A stretch of 64,000 bases of DNA. Source: Escherichia phage mistaenkt. Position 1 is the first letter of the stretch; the number at the start of each line of letters is the position of its first letter. The notes beneath the pieces are model-generated. The model saw only the letters and a program-made list of their open reading frames with translations. It did not search any database and was not told the DNA's origin. The stretch is from the sequence record MN850587.1. One strand, given 5' to 3'. The translations under genes were made by a program, and so were the position numbers. Positions 11,402 to 18,339 of the stretch are shown piece by piece.

Positions 11402-12529
11402 TCAGATTTCACGTTTACGCTGAGAAATCAGTTCACCAGCAGTACCTACAACAACATGCAGTGCTTCAGATTTGCCATCCCACTCTTTGACAACCTGACG
11501 CTGACCATTTACAATTGCTGCAACCTCATAACGTGAAGCTCGCATTTTCATGTCTTGATAATCAGTTGGTACAGATACAACGTCTCGTGGATGTACACGA
11601 ACTTTCAGGATGGTATCACCAGAGAAGCTACGTACATAATCCCAAGCACCAACATGAAGACCTTGAGAGCAAGTTACTGTACGGTCATTATCAACCATCC
11701 ATCGTGGCATTTCTACAACGTTACCCAAATCATTAGGAACTTTGCATGTACGAGAGTCAAACAGCTTACCGCCACGAGTTGTAACTTTCTTCCAACCAAT
11801 GATATAACCTTCTTCATCAATCTCAACATCAAGGTGAGATACAAAGCCCCAAAGTTGTTCTACAGAATCTTTGGATGGGTTTTCCATAAGTTTTTCGAAG
11901 AATGCTACCAGACGTTTAAATCCGTCATCACCAACTTTCATCATGTCCAGAATACGGTCTACCAGAGTTGAACGCATTTGTACAGCACCGTAGTACAGGT
12001 TATCGCCTTTGATAGTGATTGCACCCTGAGTGAAGTTTTCGATAGATTTGCGGATATTCATCAGTTCGAAAGCTTTCTTATACTCGCCACCTACAACAGC
12101 CATCACAATCTCTTTGTAGTTCGGATGGGTAGACTCAACGATTTCAGAATCTGCACCGAAAGTCATGATAACAGAATCACCAGTAATCATGTACTCAATC
12201 TGGTTACCATTCTGCATTGCTTCATGCAGTTGGTTAACAGGTTCTTTCTTCACTGCCTCTTTAACAGCTTTGGCAACTTTGGCAACTTTGGCAACTGGTT
12301 TAGTAGCCGTCTTCTTAGCAGACTTTGCAATCTGTTTCAGAGTCTGTTTAGCTGGCTTGGAAGTTGCTTTCTTAGCACCTCTCAGTGTTGCTTCGTGACG
12401 TTCTACAGCACGACCAACGGAACGTGTAGAAGTATTATACTTCATTGCAATGGCAGTTTTGGTCAGTTTACCTTCCTGAACCATTGCATAAATTTCTGCG
12501 TCGATTTGTGCTTTAGTTTTAGTAGTCAT
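11402..12529 (-). CDS. Putative rIIB-like protein with N-terminal HTH-like segment and Lys/Ala-rich tract (375 aa)
   Basis: Immediately downstream of rIIA, as in T4-type rII loci; KKATSKPAKQTLKQIAKSAKKTATKPVAKVAKVAKAVKEAVKK tract; rIIB identity is by position and recollection, not verified. Confidence 0.45.
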   Translation of the reverse strand: MTTKTKAQIDAEIYAMVQEGKLTKTAIAMKYNTSTRSVGRAVERHEATLRGAKKATSKPAKQTLKQIAKSAKKTATKPVAKVAKVAKAVKEAVKKEPVNQLHEAMQNGNQIEYMITGDSVIMTFGADSEIVESTHPNYKEIVMAVVGGEYKKAFELMNIRKSIENFTQGAITIKGDNLYYGAVQMRSTLVDRILDMMKVGDDGFKRLVAFFEKLMENPSKDSVEQLWGFVSHLDVEIDEEGYIIGWKKVTTRGGKLFDSRTCKVPNDLGNVVEMPRWMVDNDRTVTCSQGLHVGAWDYVRSFSGDTILKVRVHPRDVVSVPTDYQDMKMRASRYEVAAIVNGQRQVVKEWDGKSEALHVVVGTAGELISQRKREI

Positions 12530-12608: not shown

Positions 12609-14975
12609 TTAATCAAAAGCCTGAGTTCCTTCAGGGATGCACTTAACATCAAACCCTAAGAACTGACCAACTTCAACAGGACTTACTTTATTCCAGTCTA
12701 AGTTAGAAAGCAAGAAGTTTTCTGCTTTACGTGCTTTGAAGTATACGGTCAATTTCTGCTTAATACGTTCTCTTGCGTTGTATATTGCAGAATGTACCTT
12801 ACTCTTCGCTCTTGTCAAACGCTGTAAGTCATGCAGAACGCTTGTAACGTCTTTATAAGCAATCGGTGAAGCAACATAAGCCAGCTTACCAAACATTGCT
12901 TCTACGGCCTCTTCGTTCCCTTCCAAGAAGATACGTTTGCTGTAATCAGCACTATATACATAGCCTCTTGAGCACTTCTTATCACCAAACTGGAACGTTC
13001 TGGCAATAACACCTTTATCAGTGATATCGCAGTTTGAGCTACACCACTCACGAGTTACAAAGCGGTTAAACTCAATCCAGTGAATGTCAGTGATAGAGTC
13101 TTTGAAGACTTGCTGATTCACTTCTAACCAGTCTTCAGGAATTTTCTTCCAGTTTGCTTTACGGAACACATAAACTGGCTGTCCAGTTAAACGTGCCATA
13201 ACCTTTGCAGCACCTTCTGGTGAGCAATTAAAGATTCCACCCAAAACATCATCACCCTGTGCTTTGATATAATACTGAGGTTCTTCAATATCATCAAAGT
13301 TTTCTTTGACTTCTGTATAAGATACACCGTGTTCATGTACAGAAGCTTTGTAGAGTTTTACAACACCACGAGTTACGGTACGCTTCACATAGTGATGCTC
13401 TTTGTCAGACATTTTAACAATCGTCAACAGACTCTTATCAATCATGTGGAGATTAATAAACTGGTCTAACTCTTGTTCATCATAGAACACATAAACAATA
13501 CCGTTGTAGCGACGGAAGTTCGGTTCTTCATTTTCACGGTCACGACAAGCGCCACGAATAATCTGATTGCGTCCTACAGTCTTTTCAGTACCATTTTTGT
13601 TTCGACGGTCATTGATAAGGAACAAATAGTTAGACATTTTGTTCTTACTCATTGCACCGAAGATACTGAAGTTCGCACCTTCCTGAGTGTACATCGCTGA
13701 AGTTGCACGAATCTTATTTTCCAGTTGACTATACTTGAAGTAAGCAACAGGCTCATACAGATTCCCAATAACAGGAATGTGATTACCACTCTTATCAACA
13801 ACCAAAGCTCCTGAATCATCAGTTGCAAACTTTGGAGTGCCATCTTCATTACTCAACTGTCCTTGACGAATCTTTAAAAGTCTCTGTTCAAGGTCTGCTA
13901 AGTTCTGACCATTCCATTCAAGACGTGTAAACACATGCTGGAAGATTTCACGAGAGTTAGCTCGCAAGTCTGCATAAGCCTGTGCAGCGTCTGCCAAGGT
14001 TGGCTCGTTGTCAATACGTTTTACCACATCTTCTACAATCGTTGCAGTAATCTTTTTAACTGCATCTGTAATTGCTTTCTTAGTGGTCTCATTCATCTGC
14101 AATGCTTCACGAGATGCAGCGATAGCCACTGAACCGATTGGCATGTAGATGTTAACAAGGTCTACAGCATTACGGAAGAAGGTAGGCAGTACGTTGGTGA
14201 ACTCTGCACCAAGTAAATCTCCTAAGTCAACCGGATAAGCAATGTTACCCATGACAACGTTGAAGTTTGTCTGGTTATTACTTGAACGCCAGTTCTCTTT
14301 ATACTTCATTGCATCGTAAACACCATCTTCACGAACAATGGTTGTCATCTCACTGAGAATGTCACGATATTCAACGTTGCATTCTGGCTTCAGTTTGAAG
14401 TAAGAGAATACGTTACTCGCTTCTTCATGGAACTTCTGAATACGGTGGCCAGCCACTGCAACACGAACTGCTAAACCATTTGGTTCGGTAGTTGGGTTAG
14501 TAGTCAGTTTAGTAACTTGAGGAATACCATTCTCAAGATATACAGAGTACTTGTTAACCACTCCATCTACGTAGCTGGACACGGTGAATGACTGTGCAAT
14601 TGCAAAAGGTGACTTCGAACCGATACCCATAGCGCCGATGTAGTCGTTTGAGTCATTCTTAGTAGAAGCTCCATAGTTCAGGTACAGAGACATAACCTTC
14701 TCATGAGTCAGGCCAGTACCGAAGTCACGAACTTCAAAGTACGGGTCAAAACGAGTTGGCAGGTGTACACGAAATGGTACATTCTCTTTTCCAGCTTCTT
14801 TGTGAGTATCTACAGCATTACAAGACAACTCACGAATTACAGCACGTTCTTTAAAAGTGTAGACACCTGAACTTAACAGGCTGAACATTTCAGGAGTCAT
14901 CGTGATAGATGCCTGAGAAGTTTCTAATGAAGATGAACTCTTAATCACCTCTGCGTGGTCATTTACCATGCGCAT
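12609..14975 (-). CDS. rIIA: rIIA-like protein with GHKL-type ATPase domain (788 aa)
   Basis: Bergerat-fold motifs IRELSCNAVDT (N box), EVRDFGTGL (DxGxG), GAMGIGSKS (GxxGxG); size and position fit phage rIIA. Confidence 0.75.
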   Translation of the reverse strand: MRMVNDHAEVIKSSSSLETSQASITMTPEMFSLLSSGVYTFKERAVIRELSCNAVDTHKEAGKENVPFRVHLPTRFDPYFEVRDFGTGLTHEKVMSLYLNYGASTKNDSNDYIGAMGIGSKSPFAIAQSFTVSSYVDGVVNKYSVYLENGIPQVTKLTTNPTTEPNGLAVRVAVAGHRIQKFHEEASNVFSYFKLKPECNVEYRDILSEMTTIVREDGVYDAMKYKENWRSSNNQTNFNVVMGNIAYPVDLGDLLGAEFTNVLPTFFRNAVDLVNIYMPIGSVAIAASREALQMNETTKKAITDAVKKITATIVEDVVKRIDNEPTLADAAQAYADLRANSREIFQHVFTRLEWNGQNLADLEQRLLKIRQGQLSNEDGTPKFATDDSGALVVDKSGNHIPVIGNLYEPVAYFKYSQLENKIRATSAMYTQEGANFSIFGAMSKNKMSNYLFLINDRRNKNGTEKTVGRNQIIRGACRDRENEEPNFRRYNGIVYVFYDEQELDQFINLHMIDKSLLTIVKMSDKEHHYVKRTVTRGVVKLYKASVHEHGVSYTEVKENFDDIEEPQYYIKAQGDDVLGGIFNCSPEGAAKVMARLTGQPVYVFRKANWKKIPEDWLEVNQQVFKDSITDIHWIEFNRFVTREWCSSNCDITDKGVIARTFQFGDKKCSRGYVYSADYSKRIFLEGNEEAVEAMFGKLAYVASPIAYKDVTSVLHDLQRLTRAKSKVHSAIYNARERIKQKLTVYFKARKAENFLLSNLDWNKVSPVEVGQFLGFDVKCIPEGTQAFD

Positions 14976-15033
14976 AATAACTTTCCTCTTGGGTTGTTTG
15001 ATGCAGAGACTTTAAAGAACTCTGCACCGATTG

Positions 15034-15216
15034 TCAACTGTTTCCGTTATGTTTCTTTCCAGTTCCACCACAATAAGGGCAGCAACCATAACTTACCAGA
15101 CCTGTACCATCACAATCTTCACACTCTTCTGCACCGAAATAGTGTTTAGCCAGAAGGTATCCGATTACAATCAGACCACCAAATGACAGGATTAACTCTA
15201 ACCAATAACCTTGCAT
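15034..15216 (-). CDS. Small membrane protein with DnaJ-type zinc finger (60 aa)
   Basis: TM segment LELILSFGGLIVIGYLL followed by two CxxCxGxG repeats (CEDCDGTG, CPYCGGTG). Confidence 0.5.
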   Translation of the reverse strand: MQGYWLELILSFGGLIVIGYLLAKHYFGAEECEDCDGTGLVSYGCCPYCGGTGKKHNGNS

Positions 15217-15533
15217 AACTTCTCTCCAACATGTTTGTACAGAATGAAACTACGGTCATGAACAATACTTGAGGCAACTGCAAAGTTCTCTTCCAGTATT
15301 GCTTTGTTCGGATTATAGAATCCGTCTAAGAATTGGTCAAGTGCTAATTGGTGGTTTTGTGGAAGACCTTTCACATAAATCTTCATAGAAAGTGTGGCAA
15401 CCACTTCACCTTGTAGTTCATCTCGTGCTGCTACCAAGATTTGGTTAATGAACTTGTGACCATCTTCAGGACGTTTAATATCATCCCAATTCTCTTCCAA
15501 GACCATGTTGATATTCATCTGTTTGATTTTCAT
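15198..15533 (-). CDS. Hypothetical protein (111 aa)
   Basis: ORF directly downstream of the Nampt-like gene. Confidence 0.6.
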   Translation of the reverse strand: MKIKQMNINMVLEENWDDIKRPEDGHKFINQILVAARDELQGEVVATLSMKIYVKGLPQNHQLALDQFLDGFYNPNKAILEENFAVASSIVHDRSFILYKHVGEKLCKVIG

Positions 15534-15550
15534 AACATTCTCCAGAAATT

Positions 15551-15571
15551 AAAAAGGCTCCCGTAGGAGCC
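15551..15571 (-). terminator. Rho-independent terminator
   Basis: GGCTCC-CGTA-GGAGCC followed on the minus strand by TTTTTAATTT; downstream of the Nampt-like gene. Confidence 0.7.
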
Positions 15572-15586
15572 TCTTATAATACTTAT

Positions 15587-17413
15587 TTAAAGCTGTCTGT
15601 CAATAACATTTCGTACATCACGAAGGTTAACGTAGCCATATGGCTGAGAGTCGCAGAATACCAGCTTCAGAGCACACTGAGGGTTGTCAAGTACGCCTTC
15701 AAACTCTGCAAAGCCAAAGCCATCTACAGCTTCCAGCTTATCACCATCCCACATAGGGACTACACCACCAAAAGCAGACTTCTTCAGACCACTGTCAGTT
15801 TTAGGGTCTTTTGCCAGCATGATTTCTTCACCATCCATCTGTGCAAGAGTTGCTTTAACAGCGAATGCAAAGGTATCACGAGTCAGGTACTGGTAAGTGT
15901 ATGAACCAACACCAAAGACAACGTTAGAACTTGCAAAGCCCTTTTCAGCAAGACGGCTAAGAATCTCTTCAGCACGTTCCAGAGTGATAGAGTCACCATA
16001 GATTAAGCCAATATGTTCATCAAGGACTTTGTAACCTTTAGAGTTTACAGTGCCTCCAAAGATGTTGTACAGAGTTTTGATAGCCCCATCAATTTCTGCT
16101 GTCAGCATACGTTTAACAACAACTTTACCAGTCTTGTAAGTCTCTTTAAGGTTAACTGTATCGGCAACGTTAAAGTCTTCTGCATCAACAATTAACTCAT
16201 AACCTTCAGAGATTAGCCAAGCAGAGAAGCCATAACCCATATCTGTCATGTTACAATTCAAGATTGCATCAAGTAGATAAGTATTGTCAGGGGAAATAGT
16301 TGACATGTGTTTGTAATACATGCTCTTAGCATTTTCCCATTCAATTGCACGATAACCAGTAACAATGTGTACAGGGTCACCTGAATCTGGACGGATTACC
16401 AGTTTACCATCACGGTTCATGATTTCTTCACGGAGTTCTGGAAGAATCTCTGTAACTGTACGCCAGAAGTTGTAAGTATCGGACACAACACTTGCAATAC
16501 CAGTTGGGTAAACATCTACCAGCAGGTGCTTAAAGGTTTGAACCTCACCACGCCAGCGTTTAGCATCCAGCAAGCTATCAGACTGCATAATGTACTGTGA
16601 GTGAATGTCATCTTCTGTCAAGTCTTTCATATTCCATGAAATGTTTGCACACATCACAGAGTGTTCAGTTGCTGGAACAGAGTTACCAATATCACTTACA
16701 GTCATGAACTGACCATATGCACGTTTAGCAGTATACACAGCAGGGAAGCTGTCAGTGCCTTTAAAGCTGGTCAGGTGACCTACAGCGTTGAAAGCATCAT
16801 CTGTAAAGCCAGACATACCACGCATTGCAAAGTCGTGACACTGCCAAGGAAGATGGAAGTCATTGTCACAGGTCTTGTCAGCCCAAGATTTACAGATACG
16901 TTTGTAATGCAGTGCAATAGTTGCAATGGTACAAGCTTTCCAGATTTCAGCAGAGAAAGCATCTTCCAGATAACCAGCTACCCAATGGAAACCTTCAACG
17001 GTATTTTTGAAGATAATCATTGGAACACGCATAGGAACGATTGTACCTTCTTCAACAGAGTACACTGCAACTGGCAGATAACCTAAGTCGTGAAGTTCTT
17101 CCCAATGATGACGCTTGATAGCATCTGCACCAAGAACACCATTCATGATTTCCAAGATTTCATCAACAGCTTCTTTCTTATCACGTTCGAAGAAAGTTGC
17201 ATTCCAATGGTCTACTAAGTAATCTTTAACGAAACGTTGAATACCGAAAGCAACTACACCGTCAGTCTCCAAAGGAGTATTAAACCACTTATCGCCACGG
17301 GGTGTAAGGTTCAGCATCAGATACTGAGTTGCACTCGGATACTGGTAGGTGTGACCAGCTTTATAAGCATCTGCATTAAGACCTGCTGGAACTGCATAGA
17401 TTGATTTAGACAT
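15587..17413 (-). CDS. nadV: Nicotinamide phosphoribosyltransferase family protein (Nampt/NadV-like, 608 aa)
   Basis: N-terminal DAYKAGHTYQYP and C-terminal GLIYGDSI, VVFGVGSY, TRDTFAFAVK, KDPKTDSGLKKS blocks match the Nampt family as recalled; longer than typical Nampt. Confidence 0.8.
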   Translation of the reverse strand: MSKSIYAVPAGLNADAYKAGHTYQYPSATQYLMLNLTPRGDKWFNTPLETDGVVAFGIQRFVKDYLVDHWNATFFERDKKEAVDEILEIMNGVLGADAIKRHHWEELHDLGYLPVAVYSVEEGTIVPMRVPMIIFKNTVEGFHWVAGYLEDAFSAEIWKACTIATIALHYKRICKSWADKTCDNDFHLPWQCHDFAMRGMSGFTDDAFNAVGHLTSFKGTDSFPAVYTAKRAYGQFMTVSDIGNSVPATEHSVMCANISWNMKDLTEDDIHSQYIMQSDSLLDAKRWRGEVQTFKHLLVDVYPTGIASVVSDTYNFWRTVTEILPELREEIMNRDGKLVIRPDSGDPVHIVTGYRAIEWENAKSMYYKHMSTISPDNTYLLDAILNCNMTDMGYGFSAWLISEGYELIVDAEDFNVADTVNLKETYKTGKVVVKRMLTAEIDGAIKTLYNIFGGTVNSKGYKVLDEHIGLIYGDSITLERAEEILSRLAEKGFASSNVVFGVGSYTYQYLTRDTFAFAVKATLAQMDGEEIMLAKDPKTDSGLKKSAFGGVVPMWDGDKLEAVDGFGFAEFEGVLDNPQCALKLVFCDSQPYGYVNLRDVRNVIDRQL

Positions 17414-17457
17414 GTTTTAATCTCTCTCAAAGTGGGGCTTAAAAGCCCCTGATTAAT

Positions 17458-18339
17458 TTAATAGATGTTTGCTACAGTTACTTGACCGAAATGAGTCAGA
17501 CCACGGTCTTTCGCACTACCTAAAGAGTCTGTAGTGTAGATGTGTGAAATACCATTGTCAAGCAGGTTTTCAACACCTTTTGAGAAAATACCATGTGTTA
17601 CATACAGTTCAACTTTAGATGCTCCAGCTTCACGAAGATACTTGGCTGCTTCAATGAAGGTACGACCACCATCACAGATATCATCAATGATGAGTACAGT
17701 TTTACCAGTAAGGTCTACATCATCAAGCAGACGCATACCTGTAATCTCACCAGTCTTCAGGTCTCGAACCTTAGCCATTGTTACGTAAGGCTTATCAACC
17801 TCTTTAGCCGTCTCTGCAATCTTCTTAGCTGCTCCTGCATCTGGTGCTACCAGAAAATCAATGGTAGGCTCACTGGCATAGTGTGCTGCAACATCTTTTT
17901 GATGGATGTTCTGGAAGCATTTGAACAGGTTGTCTGCAACGTCACTGTGAGCATCCAGAGCACATACTGCATCAAAATCCATTGCATTGACCAGATTAGC
18001 AAACACTTTCAGTGCTGCTGCATCACCTTTAAACATGTGACGGTCATATCGAGCATTTGGCAGGTAAGCAAAGATGACAGTTTTCATAGTTGCTTTCTGA
18101 GGAATCATTTTGTCGATTGCCTCTTTTGCCAGAGCTAAAGCAAACAGAGTGTCTTTGTCGTAACCTTGTACAGTGAAGATGACGTTCTCAATCTGGGAAG
18201 CATTCTCTTCAGCATAGGTTACTAATTCTTCAGAGAAGTTACCACCAATTTCCCCAGACGGGAACTGGATAATGTTGAACTCTTCTTGGTGAGCACCTTT
18301 TTTCTGTGAGTGCAACAGTACGCTAATAATAGTTTTCAT
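17458..18339 (-). CDS. prs: Ribose-phosphate pyrophosphokinase family protein (Prs-like, 293 aa)
   Basis: PRPP-binding loop VLIIDDICDGGRT and THGIFS block, FPSGEI N-terminal block, VAPDAGA. Confidence 0.8.
   Translation of the reverse strand: MKTIISVLLHSQKKGAHQEEFNIIQFPSGEIGGNFSEELVTYAEENASQIENVIFTVQGYDKDTLFALALAKEAIDKMIPQKATMKTVIFAYLPNARYDRHMFKGDAAALKVFANLVNAMDFDAVCALDAHSDVADNLFKCFQNIHQKDVAAHYASEPTIDFLVAPDAGAAKKIAETAKEVDKPYVTMAKVRDLKTGEITGMRLLDDVDLTGKTVLIIDDICDGGRTFIEAAKYLREAGASKVELYVTHGIFSKGVENLLDNGISHIYTTDSLGSAKDRGLTHFGQVTVANIY

Follow-up and report, generated by a model that had tools for sequence, protein, structure and literature searches.

Why does a phage keep a 60-amino-acid protein with a predicted membrane helix and a predicted zinc knuckle ahead of rIIA, between two modules that have each been reported to counter host defenses? 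The question is raised by a short open reading frame (ORF) of Escherichia phage mistaenkt (sequence record MN850587.1), of which we analyzed a 64,000-nucleotide stretch, referred to here as the window. The coding sequence lies on the minus strand at 15034..15216 with its stop codon counted, running through 60 codons from an ATG at 15216-15214 to a TGA at 15036-15034, and translates to MQGYWLELILSFGGLIVIGYLLAKHYFGAEECEDCDGTGLVSYGCCPYCGGTGKKHNGNS. An initial annotation of this DNA had given it exactly these boundaries and described a membrane-anchored miniprotein with DnaJ-type zinc-finger repeats, suggesting either a membrane-tethered zinc-binding regulator or a chaperone mimic. The regulator reading fits our evidence as a prediction. 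Our best overall explanation, which we offer tentatively, is that the miniprotein is a conserved, non-essential, membrane-tethered protein-binding adaptor and a possible partner of rIIA/rIIB. We consider its most informative feature, which the initial annotation missed, to be its invariable place directly upstream of rIIA in a counter-defense island.

The miniprotein gene is real, conserved, and under purifying selection. By nucleotide identity, the window belongs to an ounavirus (Ounavirinae, the group related to Felix O1) of the Suspvirus type: a 2.5-kb segment containing the ORF is 96% identical to Escherichia phages EcSzw-2 and EcSzw_1, 94% identical to SUSP2, and 78-81% identical to Mooglevirus phages. 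The protein matches PHROG 3931 with E 4.1e-27 (residues 1-57 on profile positions 1-58 of 59), and by this match is a member of a family without assigned function that includes Felix01p243, SUSP1 agp080, Silverhawkium gp2, Michonne gp2, and phiEa21-4 protein 117, with RB49 and Phi1 ORF046 as more distant relatives. We aligned 13 orthologues from Suspvirus-like phages, Mooglevirus, Felixounavirus, Kolesnikvirus (Erwinia), Pectobacterium phage Arno162, and Krischvirus (Phi1). They are merely 35-55% identical to the window miniprotein, and nine columns are invariant: M1, C32, C35, G37, G39, C46, C49, G51, and G53, which include all four cysteines. The frame, on whose conservation the initial annotation had made its reading depend, is kept in these 13 orthologues. 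Pairwise Nei-Gojobori ratios of nonsynonymous to synonymous substitution rates (dN/dS), taken over pairs with unsaturated dS, fall between 0.07 and 0.42 among the pairs shown, the sole exception being 0.73 between the window and locus L006. The window gene has a Shine-Dalgarno GGAG (15224..15227, minus strand) 7 nucleotides (nt) 5' of its ATG, and every orthologue has a Shine-Dalgarno-like purine-rich element, mostly GGAG or GAGG, ~6-12 nt 5' of the start.

A single-sequence, word-indexed protein search returned just four matches, and profile and exhaustive searches were needed to see the distribution of the family. Using tblastn with a Felixounavirus query, we found the miniprotein in 257 phage records, with the alignment covering at least 80% of the query in 256 of them. 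The window copy, the Suspvirus-like variant, has the same size and motif as the rest of PHROG 3931, and the ounavirus members also share the position ahead of rIIA. Alignment shows a short C-terminal tail that is usually basic, KKHNGNS in the window (15037..15057, minus strand) and KKFKK, KMFNK, or KVSIIK in relatives, with an acidic EDD in the Erwinia phage member. In some records, such as ESCO56, the gene is intact and left unannotated. Elsewhere GenBank labels the protein "heat shock protein", "chaperone protein", or "membrane protein", names apparently given for no more than a similar motif or similar hydrophobicity. GU169904.1, a 147-kb record named "Staphylococcus phage SA1", contains at 120084-120257 a copy with 98% identity to the Felixounavirus miniprotein, and there are matches in two "Campylobacter" records as well; such entries seem to be mislabelled or chimeric and not a genuine cross-phylum occurrence.

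The four cysteines are arranged in two CxxCxGxG motifs, CEDCDGTG at residues 32-39 (15100..15123, minus strand) and CPYCGGTG at residues 46-53 (15058..15081, minus strand), both found by pattern scan. As the initial annotation had proposed, these are repeats of the DnaJ type, and they are the sole CxxCxGxG matches in the six-frame translation of the window; 200 shuffled windows gave a mean of 0.19 matches per window and a maximum of 2. The repeats are set 6 residues apart, and a 22-residue hairpin would hold both. Taken as a single sequence, the protein scores well below the cut-offs for both DnaJ models, with 13.3 bits versus 32.7 for Pfam DnaJ_CXXCXGXG (PF00684; best family member E 5.8e-5) and 18.9 bits versus 377 for TIGR02349 (E 8e-4). 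A profile of the family matched the cysteine-rich domain of E. coli DnaJ in the PDB (1EXK, a nuclear magnetic resonance structure) with E 1.3e-9, followed by human DNAJA3 (2CTT, 3e-7) and another DnaJ (6JZB, 7.6e-6), with Anti-TRAP matching weakly (0.011-0.029). Searched against 1.84 billion representative proteins, the same profile recovered 1,968 at E ≤0.001, among them bona fide DnaJ proteins (P0084, P0095) and many multi-repeat CxxCxGxG proteins. The match to 1EXK and the recovery of real DnaJ proteins show that the miniprotein repeats are homologous to the DnaJ-type repeat.

Since it has two repeats where DnaJ has four, the miniprotein is predicted to be able to form one Zn(Cys)4 site and not a two-centre DnaJ domain. 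Zinc binding by the four cysteines is very probable, given their invariance and their homology to the DnaJ cysteine-rich domain. An AlphaFold 2 model, computed without zinc, has a mean predicted local distance difference test (pLDDT) score of 68.5 and shows a helix at residues 4-27 followed by short strands. Foldseek searches of this model against the PDB gave Anti-TRAP as the best matches (3LD0 and 2BX9, root-mean-square deviation 1.0-1.1 Å over 23-24 residues), then 1EXK. E-values were 0.5-4.7 (0.5-1.2 for Anti-TRAP), none of them significant because the domain is tiny. In a library of viral structures (BFVD), the single match at E 0.001 was a family member, and the named top matches were uncharacterized phage proteins. 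The second-best BFVD match, Pseudomonas phage ZC03 gp48, lies 2.8 kb upstream of rIIA/B and has two motifs; we set it aside as a different architecture because it has no hydrophobic helix. We likewise treated Pfam DUF5351, which gave weak matches in all members (best E 0.0025, below cut-off), as motif similarity only.

Ahead of the knuckle, residues ~5-23 (WLELILSFGGLIVIGYLLA; 15148..15204, minus strand) form the single predicted transmembrane helix that had been noted at the outset. This segment has a 19-residue Kyte-Doolittle mean (KD19) of 1.97, where ~1.6 is a common threshold for a membrane helix, and falls within the helix of the AlphaFold 2 model. In 14 diverse members the stretch ahead of the hydrophobic core has no K or R and often a D or E, 2-6 K/R are found in the C-terminal part, and the linker from the helix to the first cysteine is 2-10 residues long (~8 in the window miniprotein). 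By the positive-inside rule, an established principle, this charge distribution predicts that the miniprotein probably sits with its N-terminus out and its C-terminus in. That topology would expose the cysteines to the reducing cytoplasm, an environment in which Zn(Cys)4 sites are stable, and would set the knuckle directly at the membrane surface. We have high confidence in the predicted architecture as such, one membrane helix joined to a two-motif zinc knuckle.

The genes at this locus lie on one strand in the order ribose-phosphate pyrophosphokinase, NadV, variable small ORFs, miniprotein, rIIA, and rIIB. The placement between rIIA and a NAD module given by the initial annotation is correct, with all of these genes on the minus strand. 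The downstream neighbor, rIIA, encodes 788 amino acids (12609..14975; PHROG 612, E 3e-181) and matches Pfam HATPase_c_3 slightly below the gathering score (E 6e-5); rIIB encodes 375 (11402..12529; PHROG 609, E 1.9e-85). With maximum KD19 values of 1.43 and 0.80, respectively, neither has a predicted transmembrane helix. Upstream, NadV/NAMPT (15587-17413) and ribose-phosphate pyrophosphokinase (17458-18339) make up an NAD+ salvage pair that bounds the locus (15587..18339). The N-terminal ~135 residues of rIIA also match the PADLOC model for the defense protein TmtA (E 2.4e-8). The common region is probably the GHKL-type ATPase domain, in which case a counter-defense protein and a candidate defense protein would share a domain.

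The position directly upstream of rIIA is constant in every ounavirus-type lineage that we examined. The miniprotein stop precedes the rIIA start by 21-74 nt in Suspvirus-like phages, Mooglevirus, Felixounavirus, Kolesnikvirus, and Arno162; the loci with this spacing include the window, Silverhawkium, Michonne, KhF3, pEC-M719-6WT.1, KMM4, SME50, BPS17W1, ESCO56, and SUSP1. In Erwinia phage SunLIRen and Pectobacterium phage Arno162, the spacing is kept across the conventional opening of the genome. The miniprotein is also ahead of rIIA in the distant metagenomic relatives P0086 and P0100; in one metagenomic locus (L014) it is 23 nt upstream, and in another (L015) a gene for an HNH homing endonuclease is all that has been inserted between the two. 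The neighbor on the far side varies: it is a PHROG 4262 ORF in the Susp, Moogle, and Felix types, an unrelated ORF in SunLIRen (gp140, without homology to the window's 111-amino-acid ORF), and NadV in Arno162 and L015. In ESCO56 (L011, 963-1677), NadV has been cut to a 55-amino-acid remnant beside an HNH endonuclease gene, and the PHROG 4262 ORF, the miniprotein, and rIIA are kept.

In the window, the far-side neighbor is an ORF of 111 amino acids (15198..15533, minus strand; PHROG 4262, function unknown). Its 3' end runs 19 nt into the miniprotein gene, across the start, an arrangement found identically in Mooglevirus and Felixounavirus loci and absent from Kolesnikvirus, Arno162, and locus L015. 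The overlap suggests translational coupling of the two genes. An AlphaFold 2 model of the 111-residue protein (pLDDT 58.5, alpha/beta) had no Foldseek match in the PDB at E 0.001; the best matches, to the IF3 C-terminal domain and SepF-like folds, were non-significant (E ≥0.01). PADLOC returned no match for this ORF or for the miniprotein, and the miniprotein matched no anti-defense family.

Published work places the miniprotein between two counter-defense modules. In Felixounavirus Bas63, PhageMaP showed that the NAD+ biosynthesis genes g79 and g80 counter Sir2-HerA and other defense systems, and that g84/g85, the rII pair, counter QatABCD (PMC11482910). From annotation and position, we infer that g79/g80 are orthologues of the NAD pair in the window. 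In SUSP1, CRISPRi-ART knock-down of rIIA or rIIB had no effect on a Rex-free host and reduced plating on cells with lambda RexAB (PMC11879866). In the transcriptome-wide screen of the same phage, rIIA was "Semi-Fit", and AVU07_agp080 (PHROG 3931, equated with Felix01p243) had a fitness of 1.05 with p 0.11 and was classed as "Not Fit" (PMC11879866). This knock-down of one orthologue suggests that the miniprotein is dispensable on a laboratory host. rIIA and rIIB have been described as protectors of membrane integrity against membrane depolarization, by a mechanism that is still unclear some seven decades after their discovery (PMC11879866). Since both flanking modules have published counter-defense roles, the miniprotein is a reasonable anti-defense candidate.

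These observations suggest the following model. The first ~4 residues of the miniprotein would be periplasmic and residues ~5-23 would span the inner membrane; a linker of ~8 residues would lead to the zinc knuckle, held at the cytoplasmic face of the membrane, and then to the short basic tail. With 60 residues, the protein lacks the size needed for an enzyme or a chaperone, and most likely acts as a membrane-tethered protein-binding module. We propose rIIA/rIIB, encoded just downstream, as the preferred partner, in which case the miniprotein would hold the rII proteins, or the rII target, at the membrane. We prefer this partner because the adjacency to rIIA outlasts rearrangement on the other side, and because rIIA and rIIB have no predicted membrane helix and yet counter membrane-depolarizing systems. 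Even so, a functional link between the miniprotein and rII is a possibility about which we are doubtful. Its more specific form, that the miniprotein is the missing membrane component which docks rIIA/rIIB, or that it directly engages a Rex- or Qat-type membrane effector, is unlikely; if it were true, the ounavirus rII counter-defense system would be a three-protein machine.

Several observations weigh against an adaptor that serves rII. Within a single subfamily of collinear phages, adjacency partly reflects the inheritance of gene order and is no proof of shared function, and the Krischvirus homologues (Phi1 ORF046 and relatives) are far from rIIA, after nrdH. T4 rII functions without the miniprotein, the T4 ORF at the equivalent place, rIIA.1, being unrelated. 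The PhageMaP main text names only g84/g85 as counters of QatABCD (PMC11482910). rIIA probably also has a promoter of its own, since a -35-like hexamer, TTGACA, shares sequence with the stop codon of the miniprotein and does not vary among seven loci of the Susp and Moogle types. As to the protein itself, the AlphaFold 2 model is only moderately confident and its Foldseek matches are non-significant, and many bacterial CxxCxGxG-repeat proteins have N-termini resembling signal peptides, which makes an extracytoplasmic location possible for this type of motif. Beside these points we note that the Krischvirus copies (L005 2977-3135, which is Phi1 ORF046, and L016 280-447) overlap the 3' end of the glutaredoxin-like nrdH by 11 nt and precede 55.2; a thiol-redox neighbor for a four-cysteine protein may or may not be meaningful.

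The main rival is that the miniprotein acts independently of rII and, on its own, inhibits or modulates a protein of the host inner membrane, such as FtsH or an abortive-infection membrane effector; the tethered knuckle would bind this host factor and either block or divert it. We hold this to be somewhat improbable, if well worth keeping in view. The position of the Krischvirus copies away from rIIA, the counter-defense setting, and the "Not Fit" score of the SUSP1 orthologue agree with it. So does the identity of the best structural matches: Anti-TRAP is named in its PDB entries as an antagonist of TRAP-RNA interactions, and would be the model for a tiny zinc protein that inhibits its target stoichiometrically. 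The precedent for FtsH is a plant protein of the same architecture, FIP, whose binding partner is FtsH5 (PMC5915565). However, the resemblance to FIP is architectural only, neither PADLOC nor the anti-defense families gave a match, and a host-directed function leaves unexplained why the neighbor on the rIIA side is constant and the one on the far side changes. The idea that the knuckle imitates the DnaJ zinc centre, and so draws DnaK or unfolded clients to the membrane, fares worse, and we rate it as very improbable. Of the initial annotation's reading, the membrane helix and the DnaJ-type repeats stand, the latter on the 1EXK match; the chaperone mimicry is the weaker part. The profile-level homology to DnaJ and the chaperone-like names in some GenBank records speak for it, but the names appear to come from motif similarity alone, and the protein has half of a cysteine-rich domain (two repeats, not four), no J domain, G/F region, or client-binding domains, and scores far below the DnaJ cut-offs.

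A further alternative starts from the opposite topology. With the N-terminus in and the C-terminus out, a signal-anchored cysteine-rich domain would form disulfides or bind metal in the periplasm and act on envelope targets, for instance in superinfection exclusion or as an antiholin-like partner (compare T4 Imm, Sp, and RI). T4 makes several small membrane proteins of this kind, and many of the CxxCxGxG-repeat proteins recovered by the profile have N-termini that resemble signal peptides, with A-x-A sites (P0064, P0142, P0128). Yet the members examined have no K or R before the core and commonly an acidic residue, with the positive charges past the helix and in the tail, the reverse of a Sec signal or type II anchor, and the hydrophobic stretch has the length of a complete membrane helix; a periplasmic domain is accordingly improbable. 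A holin or lysis-timing protein has only a slim chance, although a small protein with one membrane helix and a charged C-terminus fits loose definitions of a holin. We know of no precedent for a holin with a cytoplasmic zinc knuckle, and the gene lies between NadV and rIIA behind sigma-70-like promoter matches, apart from the lysis genes. The Felix O1 genome paper lists gp131 among possible holins (PMC3185647), and gp131 is probably the miniprotein gene, provided that no other Felix O1 gene intervenes between it and rIIA; Felix O1 is still without an identified holin (PMC11879866). Against this, a class-III holin is described in the genome announcements of both Mushroom (where it is N-in, C-out) and Michonne, phages in which the miniprotein is annotated as a "heat shock protein" (Mushroom) or hypothetical (Michonne), and the SUSP1 orthologue is "Not Fit" where the T4 and T5 holins are Semi-Fit and Fit by the same method. 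There remains the proposal that the ORF is a chance or decaying one, which is effectively refuted. Besides the records that leave it unannotated, its support comes from frameshifted alleles: in a few Felixounavirus isolates (P0011, P0015-P0018) shifts at differing positions lead into one common alternative frame and 63-amino-acid products ending ...VKCLISNLTVN, and two records give two-piece tblastn matches (MG969406.1, GE_vB_B3; OQ845959.1, NJ12). These rare shifts may be real decay of a dispensable gene or sequencing errors at a homopolymeric A run; weighed against them are the purifying selection, the motif that stays invariant at 35-55% identity, the retained Shine-Dalgarno-like elements, and the near-complete alignments in 256 of the 257 records.

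The intergenic sequences around the miniprotein contain possible transcription signals. Just after NadV, a sigma-70-like match, TTGACA-16-TATTAT (15576..15603, minus strand), fits 11 of 12 consensus positions; it is a consensus match only, and promoter-like sites are not more numerous in the window than in shuffles. Of 14 loci scanned, 7 (from Felixounavirus, Mooglevirus, and pEC-M719-6WT.1) have the same match, placed at -386/-387 relative to the miniprotein ATG. The site in the window may start a unit comprising the 111-amino-acid ORF, the miniprotein, and rIIA. A terminator-like hairpin with a 10-bp stem and a T run (15552..15575, minus strand) closes the NadV unit, and a terminator is annotated at the equivalent place in Michonne. 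The promoter match directly precedes this hairpin, the two together spanning 15552-15603, and a transcript from there would begin within the hairpin stem. The NAD module and the rII-side unit would then meet at a compact junction of terminator and promoter. A literature search found no ounavirus transcriptomes, and an Rfam scan of the whole window returned no family at gathering score.

The 58-nt spacer between the miniprotein and rIIA (14976..15033, minus strand) holds a 9-bp hairpin, TTGACA, and the rIIA Shine-Dalgarno sequence, and folds with a z-score of -3.4. The hairpin stem in the window is GGUGCAGAG...CUCUGCAUC, with no T run after it, and we found no terminator-like site in the miniprotein-rIIA interval. 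Hairpins begin 5-7 nt past the miniprotein stop in the window and in three other loci (L001 2374-2436, L002 2374-2435, and L007 1421-1484). Their stems differ by lineage (GGUGCAGAG/CUCUGCAUC, GAGGUA/UACCUC, GUGGCA/UGCCAC, and GGGCUAU/AUAGCCU), with z-scores of -1.6 to -3.4 and no U run; in the 28-nt Felixounavirus spacer the hairpin is absent. RNAalifold gave no consensus structure for these spacers because the hairpins fail to align column for column, and we used single-sequence folds in its place. The hairpin could be a processing or stabilizing element, or could merely overlap the promoter-like site of rIIA.

Nothing in these results would greatly surprise a specialist, and their value lies in the constant pairing with rIIA, which offers a cheap and direct route into the mechanism of rII. 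A small, genetically tractable membrane protein that is always beside rIIA in a whole phage subfamily provides a handle on that question. Because phage therapy and biocontrol make wide use of ounaviruses, their accessory genes matter for host range. If the miniprotein has no role in rII function, it would still show, in natural and minimal form, a single zinc knuckle tethered to the membrane. What is new is this phage version of the DnaJ-type zinc finger, predicted to be anchored in the membrane and to have a single centre.

The miniprotein can be compared with four known systems. With DnaJ/Hsp40 it shares the CxxCxGxG repeat unit, and the 10 residues from the second cysteine of motif 1 to the first cysteine of motif 2 equal the gap in the last two repeats aligned in 1EXK. 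DnaJ has four repeats and two zinc centres, whereas the miniprotein has two repeats, one predicted centre, and an N-terminal membrane helix. We found no J-domain (HPD) match to its 60 amino acids in Pfam or NCBIfam, and neither a G/F region nor C-terminal client-binding domains; it is not a DnaJ. T4 rIIA.1 resembles the miniprotein in position, being a short reading frame on the rIIA strand immediately ahead of that gene. We rejected it as a homologue: its sequence is unrelated, and the protein is soluble, with no hydrophobic helix and no cysteines, which leaves a positional coincidence only.

Anti-TRAP (RtpA) of Bacillus (2BX9, 3LD0; PF15777) is of similar size and builds one Cys4 site from two neighboring motifs, an arrangement with which the motif count of the miniprotein agrees. 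It provides a precedent for a tiny DnaJ-like zinc protein that acts purely by binding another protein. Anti-TRAP is soluble and oligomerizes into trimers through a C-terminal helix; in the AlphaFold 2 model of the miniprotein the N-terminal membrane helix is the only helix, and just 7 residues follow the second motif. Because it scores below the family cut-offs (NF058604, 13.8 bits versus 65; PF15777 matches 3 of 13 members, best E 0.03), has no C-terminal helix, and carries a membrane anchor instead, the miniprotein is not an Anti-TRAP family member. To our knowledge, the TRAP target is absent from enterobacteria.

The mature architecture of the miniprotein is matched by Arabidopsis FIP (At5g02160), a thylakoid protein without a J domain that has a membrane anchor and a C4 zinc finger of two CxxCxGxG repeats on the stromal side (PMC5915565). 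The stromal side corresponds to the cytoplasmic side on which the miniprotein knuckle is predicted to lie, and the likeness is one of design, drawn from the published description. FIP is eukaryotic, targeted by a transit peptide, and larger than the miniprotein, and has been reported only in mosses and higher plants; two-hybrid and pull-down experiments showed its binding to FtsH5, a membrane protease (PMC5915565). By analogy, the design of the miniprotein appears nearest to that of Anti-TRAP or FIP: a tiny zinc hairpin that would work by binding another protein.

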